Shown: piece by piece, positions 2,712 through 58,512 of the stretch
How positions within the stretch are numbered: position 1 is the first letter of the stretch
Layout: the number at the start of each line of letters is the position of its first letter
Source of the DNA: Lophium mytilinum
Taxonomy: Eukaryota
Length of the DNA stretch: 64,000 bases
Reading direction: 5' to 3'
NCBI GenBank assembly: GCA_010093605.1
Contig: MU004181.1
Span: forward strand, 3,224,001 to 3,288,000
The notes under the pieces: generated by a model
Told to the model about the DNA's origin: nothing
Database searches by the model: none
What the model saw: only the letters and a program-made list of their open reading frames with translations
Translations under genes and position numbers: made by a program

Positions 2712-4153
2712 ACGATTAAGGATGGCAGCGCAGCAGCGCCAGAGGAGGGGCCGACACTCGCTGGGAGGGCGTGGCGTTGGTTCGAGGCGTGCTCAGCAGC
2801 AGGAGGAACGATTAGGGAGCGTGGTGATTGATAATCGTATCGTATCAATGGCGTGAAAGGAGTGGACGGCTTCGATGAAGGCTTGAGGGGGTCCAGTCGA
2901 TGGATTACAGCATGCGGAGCGCAATACGGAGGGCGTGAAACGAGTGGACGCCAGTAAGACTGGCCAGCGACGGAAGCTATCAATGTTAGAGATAGGCACA
3001 AGAGGATGCGCCGGCTGCACCACAGACACACACCTTGAGCAAGCAATTACGAGGGAGCGTGAGGAGCGTCGTGGGAACAGACGTCGTCGAGCATGTGTGC
3101 GCGGTGTGCAAACAGAGGTAGTGCGGCGGGCAAGAGCATAGGGGGTTCGCAGGCGTCCAGGCAGAGGGAGAGATCGCAGGCCGTCCTCAGACTCCTCTTG
3201 CGAGGGTGGCGTGGGTGATTGTCGACGACACAGCGGGCGCGGTGATGGTGAGGCTGCTCGGGGGAGGTGAGGTGGTGGAGCGACCTTAGATTCCACCTGA
3301 GGCCCACAGGGGGCGTCGGGGCTAACGACAGCCAATTTCGAGGAGGCCGGGGTGCCAGCCGTGACAGGAGCCAGAGGCCGCCCATGTCGTGCAAACAAAC
3401 ACGCCAACGCCTGTGTTGCGTCGCGCGGCCATGTGCGCGTCGGGGCATGCATCGCGGCATCGTCGTCGTCGAGGCGCCTGTATTGCAGTGTGCGGCGGCG
3501 GGTGCTGGCGAGGAATGCCCTTCTCCACATGCTCTATCGTGTGCATTTCGCCCAGCAGTGCACCTGCATGAGACCCTCGAGCCGTTCAGGTGGCCCGCGC
3601 CACCAATTAGAGCGTCCAGGTGGAGCCGAGCTCGGACGTGGGTTTCCAGAAGTCTGCTATTTTTGGCCGTTGGAGCTATCACGGCTATCACCACATCAAG
3701 CTCGGCCCTGTTGGTGTTGTCCCGTCGTCTCACACATCCGCCTCGAATCGATCGATCAACGGCTGGCCGTCCTGATCTGGGACAGCTTGGCTCGTTCCCG
3801 CTTCAAACACTCGCAGAAATACCCGAAGTGGCAAGCCTGAGACCTCCCAAGCTCATCGTACTCGTCCACAGGAGCACTGAAGCCGATACCCAGCCTCCGT
3901 TGGGTGTCGACTGGCAGGCCGTCTAGGTTGACTCGAAGAGCTATTAATTTGTCACCAGTGCTACTTCACGAATCCGAACCACAGAAAATAGGGTCAGTAG
4001 CAGTGGTAGCACGCATACACAAGCCAGGCGAACGCGTACTTTGGGAAACCACTTCTCATATATTCGTGAACATGTCGAAGACTTCAAAGCCTATCCGCCG
4101 CCGTTAGACCATCGAGATCCTCTACTCCCGGCATCTCTTCCCCCAGAGGCGAC

Positions 4154-5043
4154 TCACTTTTCCACCGAAGTCTTCTTGGCGTCCTCCTTCATCCCGGCTT
4201 GCACCCACGCTCGGTTGTCTGCCGCATGCTTTTCCGCCTTCGCCTTGTCCTTGATCAACTCTTTGATCTTGTGCGGATCCGGAACATGCCGTCCCTTCTC
4301 TACGCCTGGCCTCTTCTCCATCCTTTCTTCCCACGCCTTGAGCGCTGGAAATTGGTCGATTTCAATGCCTGCCCACCCCGCTGACGCCACCCACCCGTAG
4401 TTCGCAATGTCCGCGATCGTGCACTTATCCCCGACCAAATACTGTCCTGTAGCTGCCAGCTTCTTGTCCATGACGCCGTACAGTCGTCGCGTCTCGTTTT
4501 GGTATCGCGAGATGCCATACTCGAAGATATCTGGCGCATAGCGAGTAAAGTGATTTGCTTGCCCTTGTACATGGGCGTATTAGCGAATGTTTTGGTAAAT
4601 TTGTCCAGAACTCACAGCTTCTCACCTTGCATAGGACCGACGCCAGCATTCTGGAAGAACAGCCAGTTGTTCATCTCGTAGAACTCGCGAGTGCCCGCCG
4701 GGTACGAGATCTTATAATCTGTATCATAGCGGGACACCAGGTACTGCATTATGCTGCCCGACTCGAAGAGGTTGATTTGCTCGCCGTCGGTAAAGACATC
4801 GGTCAGGGCCGGTATCCGTCCATTGGGATTTATGGCAAGAAACCACGGCTCTTTTTGCGTGTTTTTGCCGATGTCGAGCTTCTGAGCCTTGTAGGGTATG
4901 CTAGAAATACTATGTTCAGTCCGAGTATCTAAGCTTGTATGAGGGTTGGAGCTCACGAACCCTAACTCCTCGAGAGTGATTGAGATCTTGATGCCATTGG
5001 GCGTCTGTGCCGTGTAAAGAGTAATGCTTGGGTCTGACGCCAT
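4154..5043 (-). CDS. Glutathione S-transferase (Ure2p/GstA-like class)
   Basis: TPNGIKISITLEELG, INPNGRIP, FESGSI, GPMQGQANHF and TIADIA motifs; introns at about 4901..4960 and 4565..4626. Confidence 0.93.
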
Positions 5044-5630
5044 GGTGTGAGTAGCAAGCTGAAACAACACAGACCAGAGGATGCTACAGATTTACGTGGC
5101 CGGGGTGCCGCTTTTATATGTCGACGTCAGGTGGGGTGAGCTTTGGGTAAATAGCGTTAAAATGAGGGGATGATTTCAAATAGCTGCGATGGCTTAAGGG
5201 TGATGCTCTCTACAACAATGCTCGCAACAAGCTTATATAGGATTTAGGTAGCAGCATTCTCCTTTAGGGAAACTTGCCATACTAAGCCCCAGTCCCAAGC
5301 CTGTAGATTGGATAGGTAAGCTGCTGGTCCAGATACTGAGTGTATCCGAACCTGCATCTGCCGTAGCGACATATGATGATTACTACTCTGGCCTTACAAG
5401 CCAAATAGGGCAACGCTGCCTGCAGCGGTCCAGCACTGCGCAAGGCTGGCATTCCCCTCCTAAGTTTTGCTTCGTTTTCTTGGGTGACAGGGTGAAGTGA
5501 TGCACGTGACGTGATTTGTCGCCAAGGCGCTAGCGAGAGCGCGCCTTCTTACCTGCAAGCTCGCCGCCCTCGCTTCCTCTTCCTTACGCCTCACTAACAA
5601 CAACGGTCGCACGTCGCCGTCGTCGCAGCC

Positions 5631-7852
5631 ATGGCCTGGAGAAACCAAGGAATCACTGGATCTAACAACATCCCGTTAGGCAACCGACGTAGATTCGGCG
5701 ATGAAGGCGGAACTCCTTCTGACGATGGCGGTTACAACCCGTCCGCTCCTGCGACTGGCCTCACCGAGATGAGCGCAAAGCGTGGCCGCAGCCCTGTGGG
5801 TAAGTCAACACCTCCGAGTCCCTCTTTGTCCGTCGCACTGCTAACTGTCATCTTAGTCGACGGAGACGGCAACCGCCGACGCAAGAGACGCAACCGCTGG
5901 GGAGATACCACGGACAACAAGGCTGCCGGACTGATGGGCCTCCCAACCGCCATCACCGCTAATATGACTACTGAGCAGCTTGACGCCTACGCCCTGAATC
6001 TGCGCATCCAAGAGATCACCCAGAAGCTCAGGATCAGTGACGTGGTTCCCGCCGACGGAGATAGGTACGTTTGTCGTGCATCATCCTCCCTCGAACATGT
6101 ACTGACTGTCGACAGGTCTCCTTCGCCAGCCCCCCAGTACGACAACTTCGGACGTCGCGTGAACACCCGTGAATATCGCTACCGCAAGCGCCTTGAGGAT
6201 GAGCGCCACAAGCTCATAGAGAAGGCCATGAAGGTCATCCCTGACTATCAACCGCCGCAGGACTATAGGCGCCCGACCAAGACGCAAGAGAAAGTCTATG
6301 TCCCGGTCAATGACTATCCAGAGATTAACTTCAGTATGATCACTAACCCCGCTTTTTGATTTTTGACATCTTTTCCTCTCAAATGCCCATCCCGATCTTG
6401 CCTGTCGTATTCTTTCTGAGTCGGCATCGCTCTATCACTAACCCATTCACTCACTCACTTACACGCTTGCCTCAATATTTTTGATAAACAGACACTAACA
6501 TACTTTTCTTTGCTACTAACAGTTGGTCTACTTATCGGCCCTCGTGGCAACACCCTCAAAAAGATGGAATCTGAATCCGGCGCCAAGATCGCCATCCGAG
6601 GCAAAGGCTCCGTAAAGGAAGGAAAAGGTCGTTCTGATGCCGCGCACACCAGCAACCAGGAGGAAGATCTGCATTGCTTGATCATGGCCGATACCGAGGA
6701 CAAAGTCAATAAAGCCAAGAAGCTTATCCACAACGTGATTGAGACGGTAAGTCGGGTACCTCGTCACGCCGACCGTACAACGCTAAACTATAATCAAGGC
6801 TGCATCCATCCCGGAAGGTCAGAACGAGCTAAAGCGCAACCAGCTTCGTGAGCTTGCTGCACTGAACGGTACCCTGCGTGACGACGAGAATCAGGCCTGT
6901 CAAAATTGTGGAGAAATCGGCCATCGCAAATACGACTGCCCACAGGCGAAGAACTTCACCGCTAACGTTATCTGCCGTGTCTGTGGTAATGCAGGCCATA
7001 TGGCTCGAGATTGCCCAGATCGTCAGCGAGGTGCCAACTGGCGCAACGATGACAGAGGTGGACCCAACGATCGTCCTGCTCCTAGCAGAATCGGTAATGT
7101 ATCAGCCATAGACAACGATATGAACGCGCTCATGCAAGAGTTAGGAGGCGGTAATATCCCGCAGCATCGCATCGAATCTGGTGCAGGTTCCTATGACAAA
7201 TCTAACTCTGGCTTTCACGACAAACCTGGCTCTGGTGCCTACGACAAGTCTGGCCCGGGTGGTTACGACAAATCTGGTTCGGGTAGATACGACAATGGCC
7301 CGCCTAGCAACGGAAACTATGCGGGTGACGACAACCTCAAGCCCTGGCAGCGTGGCCCAACCGGTGCTGCGGCTCCCTGGGCGCAGCAGCGCGGCCGAGA
7401 TGACCGAGACGGTGGTCCTTCAGGCGCACCCGCTCCTTGGGCCTCCAGCGGTGGACGTGGTGGAGACACCTACGGCTATGGTAACTACAATGCGGCTCCT
7501 CAAGGTCCCCCAGGTAGCGCGACTCCTTGGCAGCAACCGGCTCCTCCTCCACCCCCAGGAAATGGATATGGAGGCTACGGCGCGGCTTCGTACAATCAGC
7601 AAGCTCCCGGATATGGCCCAGCCCCTGGATTGGGTGCTCCCCCGGGCATGGCACCACCGCCTGGACTCGAAGCTCTGTTCCAGAACTATGGTAGTGCGAC
7701 GAGCCCGCCTCCTCCACCGCCGCCCGGAGATGCCCCTCCCCCCGTGAGTTCAAACATTCGTTGTCTTTGTCCGTACCCCCTCCACCAGTACTGGCTGACA
7801 AAGCTTCAAGCCTCCTCCCTCAGACTTGCCCCCTCCACCGCCACCGGCTTAG
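5631..7852 (+). CDS. MSL5: Branchpoint-bridging protein BBP/Msl5/SF1 (KH-QUA2, two CCHC zinc knuckles, Pro-rich tail)
   Basis: RRKRRNRW (ULM), [29 protein letters not shown] (KH GxxG), CQNCGEIGH and CRVCGNAGH knuckles. Introns 5800..5856, 6065..6115, 6334..6522, 6747..6798, 7744..7810; stop TAG at 7850-7852. Confidence 0.96.
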
Positions 7853-8252: not shown

Positions 8253-8412
8253 TGCGGTCATGGATGCAGGAGGCACTCTGCGGCTTTGGAACCCGAGCCT
8301 CGTGCAACCGACGAAGAAGAAAGAGACAGCGCTGCGGTCATGGATGCAGGAGGCACTCTGCGGCTTTGGAACCCGAGCCTCGTGCAACCGACGAAGAAGA
8401 AAGAGACAGCGC
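8253..8412. repeat. Perfect 80-bp direct tandem duplication (2 copies)
   Basis: 8253..8332 is identical to 8333..8412 (TGCGGTCATGGATGCAGG...GAGACAGCGC); lies between the convergent BBP and KU80 genes. Confidence 0.95.
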
Positions 8413-8609
8413 TGTAACATCCATGGTTTATAGATGAAGGTTTAGGAAGGCATGCTCACAGCAAGAATCACGGAGAACCTAGCAAGCTGAAAGTGAACAT
8501 TTCGCAGAGCCATCCAGGGCTCGCCAGATACCCGCCCTACATACTCCAGCGATGCATTTTCCGAAGCCAACAATGCTTGTCTTTGTGAGGTAGAAGCCAT
8601 GCCACGCCC

Positions 8610-11358
8610 TCAAGTCGGCGGCTTCCAAAACTCCCTTGCCACCTCCTCCGTCACTTCAGAGAACGGCGATAGCTTCTGATCAATCAGCCCGACCCTGTTC
8701 ATCCGTACCTTCATCCACATGTCCCTACGGTTCCCATTCAGCTCCTCGCGGAAGATCTTCGTCTTGAGCTCCTGCATGAAGCCGTTGAAGAGGGCGGGTT
8801 CCTCCAGCTCTGTCATCTCTTCGCGCATGACGCGGATGCACTCGATGGCTTGGCCGTAGCGCGAGTCGCCGACGCTGTTGGTGATGTATGAGTAGACGAC
8901 CTTGGCGAGGTCGGCGACGGCGATTTTGAAGGTGTCGATGTTGTCCGTGGTCGCGAGGGTTTGCTTGAAGGTGGGGATGGGGTTGCTGGGGTCGACGCGG
9001 GCGCGTTTCGGTTGCCCGCTGAGGAGCTCGTCGATGTTGAGACCTGAGAGGGGCTTTTCGCGTTCGCGGGTGCGTTTGCGGCCCTGTTGTTTGGGTGGGA
9101 CTGGGGGGGGGAGGTTAGAGGGAGGATAGACTGGGGGTTGAAGGAGAAGGGGGTTACCTTTCTTGACATCACTCGCTCGCATCAGCGCTTCGAGGAGAGG
9201 TTTCGATGACTCTGCGAGCTCTTCTGGAGGAGTAGAGAATTTCGTTAGGATGGCAGGTGGGCCGGGTAAGTCTTGAGCGGTAGGATGGGTAGCGCGCCAG
9301 CGGACGATTTGATGGACGCGGTGGACTAGGGGGGAGTAGGTTTCGTCCATGGGCATGTAATCGGCCGGATTACTACCAGTTGTTAGTCTTCGTGATCTTG
9401 CAGGGCAGAAGACAAACTTACCCATCGTCGTCGGCCCCGAAAGTTGATAGGTCCATAGCATCCACATATGCGCTCATAGCATCCATCAACTCCGGCGTCG
9501 GTAGATCTCGATGTTGCGTCAGGCTTTTGCCAGCCACAGTGACCTTTCTGTCGAGCGGAGGAAATTTGTAATCGCGAACATCCTCAGCAAACGGTAGCTC
9601 AAAGTCAATCAAGCCCTCGAAATCTGGCTGGATCAGAGGTGCAAGCAGCAGTATCAAAGGATTCTTCTTTTCTTTTGCGGCGAAGCGAGCGACTGCATAC
9701 GAGGCTGTCTCATATAAAGCGTGGATGAACGAGGAGAGAGCTAGACTCGCCATGTCGTTCCCCTTTTGAGCGACGATGATGTTGGTCTTGGTCATGGCTA
9801 GGTATCGTTCAAACTAAGCAGTGTCAGCATGTTTCTCTTCGTTGCACGCTCCTCAGCTAACCTTGTCCTCCGGTATGAAACCAATGATATCAAGAGAAGG
9901 CAGAGTGTCGAGCTCTAATATGACTTTGTCGGTCTCAGCTATGTGCACAGCGGTTCGGCCATACGCATAGCCGCTCTCCAGCTCCTCTTGTGGGACATCG
10001 ATCTTGGAACCAGTTTCGCCTTCTTTTTGGATTTGAAAAACACGCTGGGTCTTCACTCCACCTAGAACTTCTTCGTTTAATCCGTCCCCGGCGTCTTCAG
10101 CTACAGTGTGTGTTGACTGAGTACCGTCCTCTGCTGCTGGATCACGTTTGATGAACCAAGTTTTTGCAGTTACCGGACGTGCAATAGAGGTCCGGGGGTA
10201 TCGTTCGACATTGATAGTCATGGCAGAGTCATACTTCTCGGGGTTACCTAGAGTGAGTGTGCCTTGATAGGACTTGACGGGTCGAGTTTTCTTCGTCTCA
10301 GGAGTGTCTATTCCTTCCACGGCTTCGGCAAGGGTAGCGAATACACCACCACAGTCATCGGTCAGTTTTTTTAGGTATGCTTCGATTTCAGTCTTTAAAC
10401 AAGTTTTAGCCAATAGCCACGAGTTTTGACAAAAGCAATGAATGGCCTCTGTACCTTTTCATGAGTTTTTTCTTCTTCCTTGAATCCAAAATCAGCGTCG
10501 TCAAAGTCCACTCCGCTAAGGCATTTTAGCTGATGCACTGAAATAGACGTCTAGGTATGGAATAGCGAAGCAACGCTTCAAACTTACATAAGAACTAGCT
10601 GGATCCCATCTTCCTTGATCTTGCTTACAATGGCGTCTAGTTGGTCACTGTCTTCCGGGTTCATAGTGCCTAGGCCGCTCGTAATGAGAACGATTTTCCG
10701 TTTGTATTGAAGCGGTTTGCCACTTTTGCCTTTTGTAGCGTTGGCAATCATCGTGATTGCAGCAACGACGGCGGATATTGCTGCTGACTATTAGAAACGT
10801 AAACACTAGCCAACGCCACAAACTAACCATCGCCTTCATCGGAAGCACTAGGGACAAGCTTTGCTTGCAAATCGCGAACATCCGATAACAGAGTCCTTTG
10901 GGGGTGTCAGCCATGGCTGGGATTTTGGCCACACATTGGGGATGGCATACTGCTTCAGAGTTTGTAGAACGGAGATGTTCTCATACCCTTCGGGATCATT
11001 GACGCCAGCATCAGAAACATTGGTGCCTTAGAACAATGTCAGTAACGAATAATATCACCGATAACGGATGGACGCGTAAAACCAATTGATCAAGTTAATG
11101 CTACCATGAATGCAACGTACCATCTGTCCGCAGACCAATCACACCAAGATTTAACGTTTTACGGCCTGTCATGACCTAGTTGACATTGAGATTCGAACAG
11201 ATGTATAGTTCTATGAGGAGATAACTTACGGCGGACGTGACTTTGTCCCAGAAGTACTGCAGCGCCCAATCAAGATCGGTCTTATCACGATCATGGTGCT
11301 TCTTGCCCATTGACCGCCCGATGTCTACAATGTAGACAGTCGCCTCTTTGTCGGCCAT
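8610..11358 (-). CDS. KU80: Ku80, ATP-dependent DNA helicase II subunit 2 (NHEJ)
   Basis: N-terminus [12 protein letters not shown] (vWA), [47 protein letters not shown]-terminal domain with NPIPTFKQ; multiple GT-AG introns. Confidence 0.96.
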
Positions 11359-57738: not shown

Positions 57739-58512
57739 GGTTGCCGGTGCACCTTCGTCTTGGACAAAGACGAGGATGGAGGTTAGAGGGAGAGTGAGGT
57801 GGACAAAGTGTCGGTAGATAACGGTTAGACGAGTAGTGCCCTTCACTTCACTTTGAAGGGACCACGTGACTTCATCAGAGATGGTAAAGCCCTCGAAGCA
57901 ATCAGACAGCAACGACGCAGTTGAAGTGGTCAGATCCATATTGCCAACCTTGAGAAGCGTTAGGGAAGCTAAAAATCTGATAACAAGGACTTGTGTGGTA
58001 TGAGGGCTTTTGCAAGAACAGCCTTTGGGACACTAGATCATATACGTTACCAGGACATAAGCTTGAGCACTATCTCTTGGCACAGTAGGCCTTGATGCCT
58101 CTTCTCGATCTCTAATAGCACGCTGCATCTCCCCGAACGGCGGCATAGCTGGATCATGAGCTTATCGGCACTATTCCATTTTGCGCCGTTTACACTCCGA
58201 CATCTTAGCTTCACTTTTTCCGATGTACCGAAGCATTTCAAATGGTAGCAATCGATTGAGCATGGACGTTTGTTCAGATCCTGTACAGACCACAAACAGA
58301 CCGCCAATTAAGGACGGCAGTCACAACTCTTCAACACTGCTGCACAATGTACTTCCACGAGAAAACTGCCGTGAATTTATAGCATATCTATATGCTGACC
58401 TTTAAGAAACTCTATTTCCATAGGCTTTGCAGCTTGCTACCCATGAATAGCACTTCTCTCATGCCCGTGTAGAAGATAAGGCCCAGCTGCCCTTTAGGAG
58501 TCCCCAGCCCAC

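Follow-up and report, generated by a model that had tools for sequence, protein, structure and literature searches.

BBP/SF1 acts early in the spliceosome and is essential, and the gene that encodes it in the fungus Lophium mytilinum raises the question of why one of its introns should be crowded with the very motif that its product reads. The gene lies in a stretch of 64,000 nucleotides (nt) of contig MU004181.1 (assembly GCA_010093605.1, positions 3,224,001 to 3,288,000 of the forward strand), which we refer to here as the window, and all positions given below count from its first letter. BBP recognizes UACUAAC, as is established knowledge and as reported (PMC3116199, PMC11483029), and the third of the five introns carries a cluster of CTAAC, with copies beside both of its splice sites. 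The explanation that we favor, at a probability of about 0.5, is that some of these copies are branch-site decoys, unusable for branching, which would let BBP throttle the productive splicing of its own transcript, that is, a negative feedback.

The identity of the gene leaves little to discuss. Its 601-amino-acid (aa) product is BBP/SF1, because it combines the SF1 helix-hairpin (SF1-HH, PF16275; 3e-13 on exon 2 and 1.7e-23 on exon 3), a BBP-type KH domain (KH-I_KHDC4-BBP, PF22675; 1.4e-20 on exon 4), two stretches of zinc knuckle (zf-CCHC, PF00098; 1.7e-12 on exon 5) and a proline-rich C-terminus, all Pfam scans being exon-wise. Comparison with a protein atlas placed it no more narrowly than Ascomycota, at low scores, and the intron sizes suggest Pezizomycotina. 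Introns 1 to 5 measure 57, 51, 189, 52, and 67 nt, and the third interrupts the protein between PEINF and (I)GLLIGPRG. One contig (depth, 760) from sequencing run X1, whose sequence is identical to that of the window, joins 6333 to 6523 and has the four other introns spliced as modelled. The original prediction, made from the letters of this stretch, had set the 189 nt of intron 3 against the 51 to 67 nt of the others, had located four YACTAAC copies and a run of CACTCAC/CACTTAC variants in it, with the first copy beginning 7 nt after the GT and the last directly preceding the AG, and had foreseen a TGA on retention. All of its sequence coordinates hold, and translation places the stop after 206 aa (Table 1). 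A spliceosomal twin intron (stwintron) was considered for this position and rejected, with the 6333-to-6523 joint being the only one in three runs and with no internal joints or conserved internal donor.

Table 1. Coordinates of the BBP/SF1 gene and of the sites within its third intron
Feature	Position in window	Strand	Remarks and basis
BBP/SF1 gene, start to stop codon	5631..7852	+	Six exons, 601 aa; modelled, translated, domain-scanned, RNA contig
BBP/SF1 exons	5631-5799, 5857-6064, 6116-6333, 6523-6746, 6799-7743, 7811-7852	+	Five joints matched by the X1 contig
Intron 3, GT..AG, phase 1	6334..6522	+	189 nt, within the KH domain; carries the CTAAC cluster; gene model and RNA joint in X1
GTATGA donor, suboptimal (A at +6)	6334..6339	+	Compared with donors of relatives
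Site A, CACTAAC, candidate decoy	6341..6347	+	Starts 7 nt past the 5' GT; sequence, column aligned in relatives
TGA met on intron retention	6357..6359	+	Translation; stop after 206 aa
Site D, mid-intron CACTAAC	6436..6442	+	Aligns as a CACTAAC column in relatives
Degenerate copies CACTCAC/CACTCAC/CACTTAC, 3' of site D	6448..6462	+	Similar ACTCAC runs in some relatives
Upstream CAG, candidate unproductive acceptor	6489..6491	+	Would add 31 nt and a frameshift, stop at 225 aa
Site E, CACTAAC, probable productive branch point	6493..6499	+	Branch A 24 nt before the intron end
Site F, TACTAAC joined directly to the acceptor AG (TACTAACAG)	6514..6522	+	Sequence; similar ends in relatives

Is this more than the motif content to be expected of a long intron? 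A chance or neutral build-up in a C/T-rich intron is one explanation to weigh, given that CTAAC is short and that every intron needs one. In the window, 4 of the 21 ACTAAC found on both strands sit in the 189 nt of intron 3. This intron has 4 CTAAC against a mean of 0.31 in 5000 dinucleotide shuffles (probability of 4 or more, 0.0004), and it is the sole span of the 64 kb with 4 CTAAC within 200 nt. A minus-strand span with 3 CTAAC, near 57963, was inspected and is not an intron cluster. Relatives were collected by scanning metagenome contigs with the KH exon and retaining the best 80 of 420 confirmed matches (93 to 100% identical in that exon), a sample that covers only the nearer relatives of the window's fungus. 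Among 61 unique introns from these loci there were 284 CTAAC, while 200 dinucleotide shuffles gave 29.9 ± 4.9 and never more than 48. The mean per intron was 4.68, compared with 0.46 for intron 2 (n = 35) and 0.59 for intron 4 (n = 49) of the same loci, whose median length is 54 nt. As stand-ins for the genome-wide background we used the window and ca. 182 kb of locus flanks; on both strands of these ca. 182 kb of related loci outside intron 3, no 200-nt span reached 4 CTAAC and only 5 spans reached 3. Whether window, relatives, or flanks are taken for comparison, the recognition motif of BBP exceeds chance in BBP's own pre-mRNA. The excess is also confined to one strand, with 294 sense CTAAC and 0 antisense GTTAG in intron 3, which argues for a function at the RNA level.

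The arrangement is not peculiar to the window. Exon 3 is also present in 75 of the loci; in 72 of these an intron occupies the same phase-1 position, and in 3 it is missing. In 70 of the 72 the intron is 137 to 264 nt long with 2 to 6 CTAAC, so that the conservation of intron position and of the extra motifs, which the original prediction had set beforehand as a check, is found in nearly all intron-bearing relatives. Copy numbers among 62 unique introns are mostly 4 (18 introns), 5 (24), or 6 (15), with 3 copies in 2 introns, 2 copies in 1, and none in 2. Two loci, L031 (intron at 1402-1498, 97 nt) and L037 (1447-1498, 52 nt), have ordinary GTAAG donors, no CTAAC, and no intron 2, and L047 has introns 2 and 4 without intron 3. 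A tree built on exons 3 and 4 (47 distinct rows) has the shape of a star in which twelve forks are well supported, and the element occurs on both sides of its midpoint. L031 and L037 form one clade, and both this clade and L047 branch from the unresolved base. The row nearest to the window is only 84% identical over the two exons.

Two side observations concern these loci. Ten of them (L009, L011, L013, L032, L042, L043, L050, L054, L059, and L065), several on contigs of 10 to 70 kb, have introns 2 and 3 and no intron 4; the short neighbouring introns come and go among loci, and the long intron 3 persists. In L031, which belongs to the clade without the intron 3 element, positions 2993-3098 carry three CTAAC in an apparent short downstream duplication (GGGACTAAC...CTTGCTAG twice).

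The layout of intron 3 was counted over 61 intron sequences, window included. At the 5' end, the donor is GTATGA in 41 and GTACGA in 8, the remainder being other GTAYGN or GTAAGA, and T at +6 is found in 0/61, whereas introns 2 and 4 mostly have GTxxGT. The first CTAAC starts at +10 in 53/61 and at +9 in 6/61. The first 45 nt hold 2 to 4 copies in 56/61, spaced mostly by 8 nt (37 gaps), 9 nt (23), or 7 nt (10); the window has one, and the whole pattern is far more marked in the relatives. In mid-intron, 52/61 have a CTAAC. Toward the 3' end, the ACTAAC of site E is 98 to 100% conserved, and its branch A lies 20 to 28 nt from the end of the intron in 61/61. In 29/61 an AG precedes site E by no more than 12 nt, and another stands between the branch A and the true acceptor in 57/61, in 56 of them 6 to 7 nt past the branch A. 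The latter AG is mostly part of a TAG (consensus, ACTAAC-ACTTAG-CT; the equivalent stretch of the window, 6499-6510, has no AG), and splicing to it would shift the frame in 44/56. This conserved TAG may be a proximity-masked acceptor or a binding site. The true acceptor is AAG in 39/61 and CAG in 22/61, while AAG occurs in only 2/35 and 3/49 of the flanking introns, and the last bases read CTAACAG in 22/61, CTAAAG in 13/61, and CTAAG in 4/61. From these comparisons, the predicted weakness of the splice sites is conserved at both ends of intron 3. Retention meets an in-frame stop inside the intron in 58/59 relatives.

Three further ideas about this layout found little to back them. A choice between sites D and E that would lead to a frameshifting acceptor gives no consistent frameshift (the first AG after D is in frame in 28/54) and is at most a loose idea. 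The bases that follow the ACTAAC of site E (consensus, ACTT) could lengthen U2 pairing, but their third position is only 60% T. Finally, the accessible text of PMC8113354 offered no link between the CAAGR motif of FgRbp1 and the AAG acceptors.

How strongly are the sites held? Across 60 sequences, mean pairwise identity was 0.878 for site A and 0.989 for the ACTAAC of site E, against 0.275 for a variable ungapped stretch of the intron and 0.52 and 0.51 for the third codon positions of exons 4 and 3. These values indicate purifying selection on the motif sites of intron 3. The roughly ten-fold excess over shuffles in the 61 introns, the fixed position at +10, and motif identities of 0.88 to 0.99 compared with 0.27 to 0.52 for neutral positions leave the chance explanation with practically no weight, and on the conservation data we regard it as refuted.

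Selection on a long intron could also reflect something housed within it, such as a snoRNA-like or otherwise structured RNA or a regulatory site acting at the DNA level, with CTAAC incidental. In the variable central part of the intron, some relatives do show TGATGA strings that resemble a C box, as well as local hairpins, and 15/60 introns fold at a z score below -2. The median z of single-sequence folds of intron 3 was only -0.87, however, RNAalifold predicted 0 consensus pairs in 60 introns, and Rfam gave no match to an intron-hosted snoRNA or known RNA family in the window or in 8 loci. Conservation falls on the CTAAC sites and on the flanks of the splice sites rather than on the central part, and a site acting on DNA would not be expected to show so strict a strand asymmetry. 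Altogether we judge a hosted element highly improbable. By eye, the 5' site can pair in some lineages with a TGATCATAC-like or CGTAC stretch near the 3' end, but the pairing does not covary and was discarded.

Does intron 3 stay in RNA? In four contigs of relatives (L006, L018, L024, and L025), the neighbouring introns of the nearest genomic relatives are missing and intron 3 is whole (gaps of 248, 210, 192, and 175 nt); compared with L075, L018 has four introns missing and intron 3 kept. Judging by the missing neighbouring introns, these contigs probably derive from RNA. From the sequencing runs, contig 4 of X10 spans 6111-6552 with intron 3 present, and since the unaligned sequence at its 5' end corresponds to the last part of exon 2, intron 2 has been removed from it while intron 3 has stayed. 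Runs X2, X10, and X11 also provided contigs passing from exon into introns that start with stacked CTAAC or end in ...ACTAAC...TACTAA-CAG. Spliced forms are represented by L004, a transcript of the L002 species with every intron removed (blocks 100% and 99.8% identical), and by L023, in which introns 3 and 4 are spliced out. Retention as proposed by the original prediction appears in otherwise spliced, RNA-like contigs of at least four relatives and in one run contig, while the window's own species shows the spliced form only. X2, X10, and X11 cover the stretch in part, and neither their uncovered parts nor the lack of a retained X1 contig amounts to evidence of absence. The fact that retained contigs are frequent suggests a fairly stable, perhaps nuclear, RNA rather than one that decays fast.

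The same contigs could be ordinary precursors of a constitutive intron whose CUAAC copies are splicing enhancers recruiting BBP/U2. In line with this, the spliced form is the sole one assembled in the window's species and the dominant one in X10 and X11, multiple branch sites can be redundant, and the bases of CTAAC are mostly unpaired in predicted folds (0.80 versus 0.54 for other bases). Nevertheless, copies at +10 to +30 and a copy fused to the AG are unable to branch, and enhancement gives no account of the weak donor in 61/61 and the AAG acceptor in 39/61 next to short and strong flanking introns, of why intron 3 never shrank, or of its selective retention, with neighbours spliced, in five independent contigs. 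We consider this explanation distinctly unlikely.

Returning to the negative feedback by BBP itself, we read intron 3 as a conserved and deliberately inefficient regulatory intron, with weak ends and one near-perfect branch site. Site E is likely the productive branch point, because no other site has a normal spacing to the acceptor and its sequence hardly varies. Site F cannot serve the acceptor that it adjoins, and copies at +10 to ca. +30 cannot branch for the donor of intron 3; site A is a candidate decoy because its distance to the 5' site is too short for a lariat. The CUAAC cores unusable for branching would thus be site A, joined by copies B and C in relatives, and site F, with a further copy, D, in mid-intron. 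Given that unusable copies are conserved on the RNA strand beside weak sites, the simplest reading is that the decoys bind a factor that reads CUAAC, i.e., the gene's own product. When BBP is scarce, the strong site E alone would be engaged, intron 3 would be removed, and full-length mRNA would result. When BBP is abundant, the putative decoys would be occupied too, and the BBP bound there would impede U1 small nuclear ribonucleoprotein (snRNP) at the donor, recognition of the acceptor AG, or both; in addition, it might trap the donor in an unproductive bridge to a branch-site complex lying too near. Intron 3 would then be kept, a stop codon would interrupt the KH domain, and the transcript would be held in the nucleus or degraded, with negative feedback on the BBP level as the net result. 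Conservation and the retained contigs give partial support to the feedback that the original prediction had proposed; what we infer beyond them is that BBP binds the decoys, which way this acts, and what becomes of the retained RNA. Put as a device, and more tentatively, although we give this version close to even odds, in filamentous ascomycetes the level of BBP, as their core factor for recognizing branch points, may be read by a dedicated cis-acting sensor, a weak long intron with decoys at both splice sites around one super-consensus branch site. In such a sensor the conserved TAG would be too near the branch A for use as an acceptor, the true acceptor being the weak AAG.

The factor that is sensed need not be BBP. 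Intron 3 might be a detained or otherwise regulated intron in which CUAAC traps U2 snRNP by pairing, or binds some other factor, so that BBP output would track general spliceosome capacity or an external signal and not the BBP level. Conservation, weak splice sites, and retention fit this equally well, CUAAC is by established knowledge the core of the U2 pairing site, and the conserved AC-T-TAGCT stretch after site E shows constraint beyond the BBP heptamer. It would leave as an unexplained coincidence, however, that the cluster sits in the gene of the motif's own reader, and most copies of the 5' cluster lack the upstream TA that would extend U2 pairing. We know of no other fungal protein with CUAAC specificity, which also counts against a different sensor. 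On balance we regard it as unlikely, though as a possibility to be taken seriously.

Several observations weigh against a loop driven by BBP. U2 snRNA recognizes the same motif as BBP, and because the motif is shared, the sequence alone cannot separate BBP from U2 snRNP as the ligand. The intron of the window is a reduced member of the family, without the second and third 5'-proximal copies and also without the TAG that follows the main branch site in most relatives. Copies in the 5' cluster, as putative BBP sites, are mostly G/T/C-CTAAC and not the full TACTAAC, and, lying 8 to 9 nt apart, they may not all be occupied together. L031, L037, and L047 lack the element, and no compensating CTAAC cluster was found in their other introns. 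On the RNA side, the X1 contig from the window's species is fully spliced, a weak objection, as contigs drop rare forms. The upstream CAG that had been proposed as an unproductive acceptor does give the 31 additional nt and the frameshift stop at 225 aa, but no joint to 6491 appeared in the contigs of the examined runs. The frequent retained contigs fit nuclear detention better than efficient nonsense-mediated decay (NMD). Moreover, retained introns are frequent in fungi, and those that are long and weak stay in more often in any event.

Self-regulation through BBP would combine features of several known systems. The accessible text of PMC4379411 describes, for the Neurospora splicing-factor gene srp2/SRSF5, a retained intron of unusual length that is subject to NMD and whose sequence is not notably conserved among Aspergillus species. 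With this case of alternative splicing coupled to NMD (AS-NMD), as far as that text goes, the BBP gene shares a splicing-factor product, a conserved long intron at a fixed position, a premature stop on retention, and a homeostatic logic. Unlike srp2, whose NMD sensitivity has been demonstrated, the BBP case is known from sequence and contigs; here, by contrast with what that text reports, the cis-element is explicit, namely, clustered copies of the factor's own short motif. For Gomafu/MIAT, the accessible part of PMC3116199 reports tandem UACUAAC repeats that bind SF1 with an affinity above that of mammalian branch sites and slow splicing in vitro. Intron 3 resembles that RNA in having several closely spaced branch-site heptamers where branching is not used, but Gomafu is presented there as a nuclear sponge acting in trans in vertebrate neurons, whereas the BBP repeats lie in cis, in the factor's own pre-mRNA, flanking its splice sites.

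Yeast ribosomal protein L30 is said to block RPL30 splicing by binding near its own 5' splice site. The BBP product would likewise sit next to the donor of an intron in its own transcript and stall spliceosome assembly, with the difference that L30 reads a folded mimic of its rRNA site, while the proposed BBP sites are linear copies of the normal substrate at both intron ends. The AS-NMD logic, the Gomafu motif, and a geometry of the L30 type would thus come together in one intron. Detained introns offer another parallel, in that one intron persists in otherwise spliced transcripts of the polyadenylated type, here read from contigs. Quaking, of the STAR family, reportedly regulates itself through ACUAA elements, and like BBP it is a KH-QUA2 protein reading ACUAA-type elements that would act on its own transcripts. 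QKI is dimeric and absent here, and its loop is said to work through isoform-specific 3' ends and translation, with no decoys at splice sites described. QKI and SF1 compete for ACUAA branch sites, and the accessible part of PMC11483029, which reports this, does not mention self-feedback by SF1. A full-text search, with many subscription papers outside its reach, found no paper on self-regulation of BBP/SF1/Msl5/Bpb1 in any organism.

If the proposed loop is real, it would be the first one described for BBP/SF1, and a general splicing factor would be employing copies of a universal splicing signal as a regulatory code. A conserved cis-element made of the factor's own motif also provides a directly testable model, with the ratio of retained to spliced transcripts as the read-out. 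Branch-site-like sequences unable to branch can face strong selection, which bears on intron annotation and on what is called a "cryptic" branch site. For gene prediction, an intron at three to four times the usual length with non-consensus ends is prone to wrong modelling.

Some minor features of the gene and its surroundings complete the description. A fifth ACTAAC lies at 5593-5598, at the extreme 5' end of the BBP transcript as assembled in run X1 and 33 nt before the ATG (the contig ends at 5594). The region encoding the BBP C-terminus contains, at 7217-7295, a coding repeat of 24 nt (3.3 copies, 80% match) that specifies SG-YDKS-G repeats. Upstream and divergent from BBP, at 4157-5091 on the minus strand, is a two-exon glutathione S-transferase gene (GST_N, 5.5e-09; GST_C, 7.6e-11). 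Downstream and convergent, at 8613-9473 on the minus strand, lies a gene whose product has a Ku C-terminal domain (8.7e-37), and the spacer between this Ku-like gene and BBP holds a perfect tandem duplication at 8253-8414 (period, 80; 2.0 copies; 100% match).

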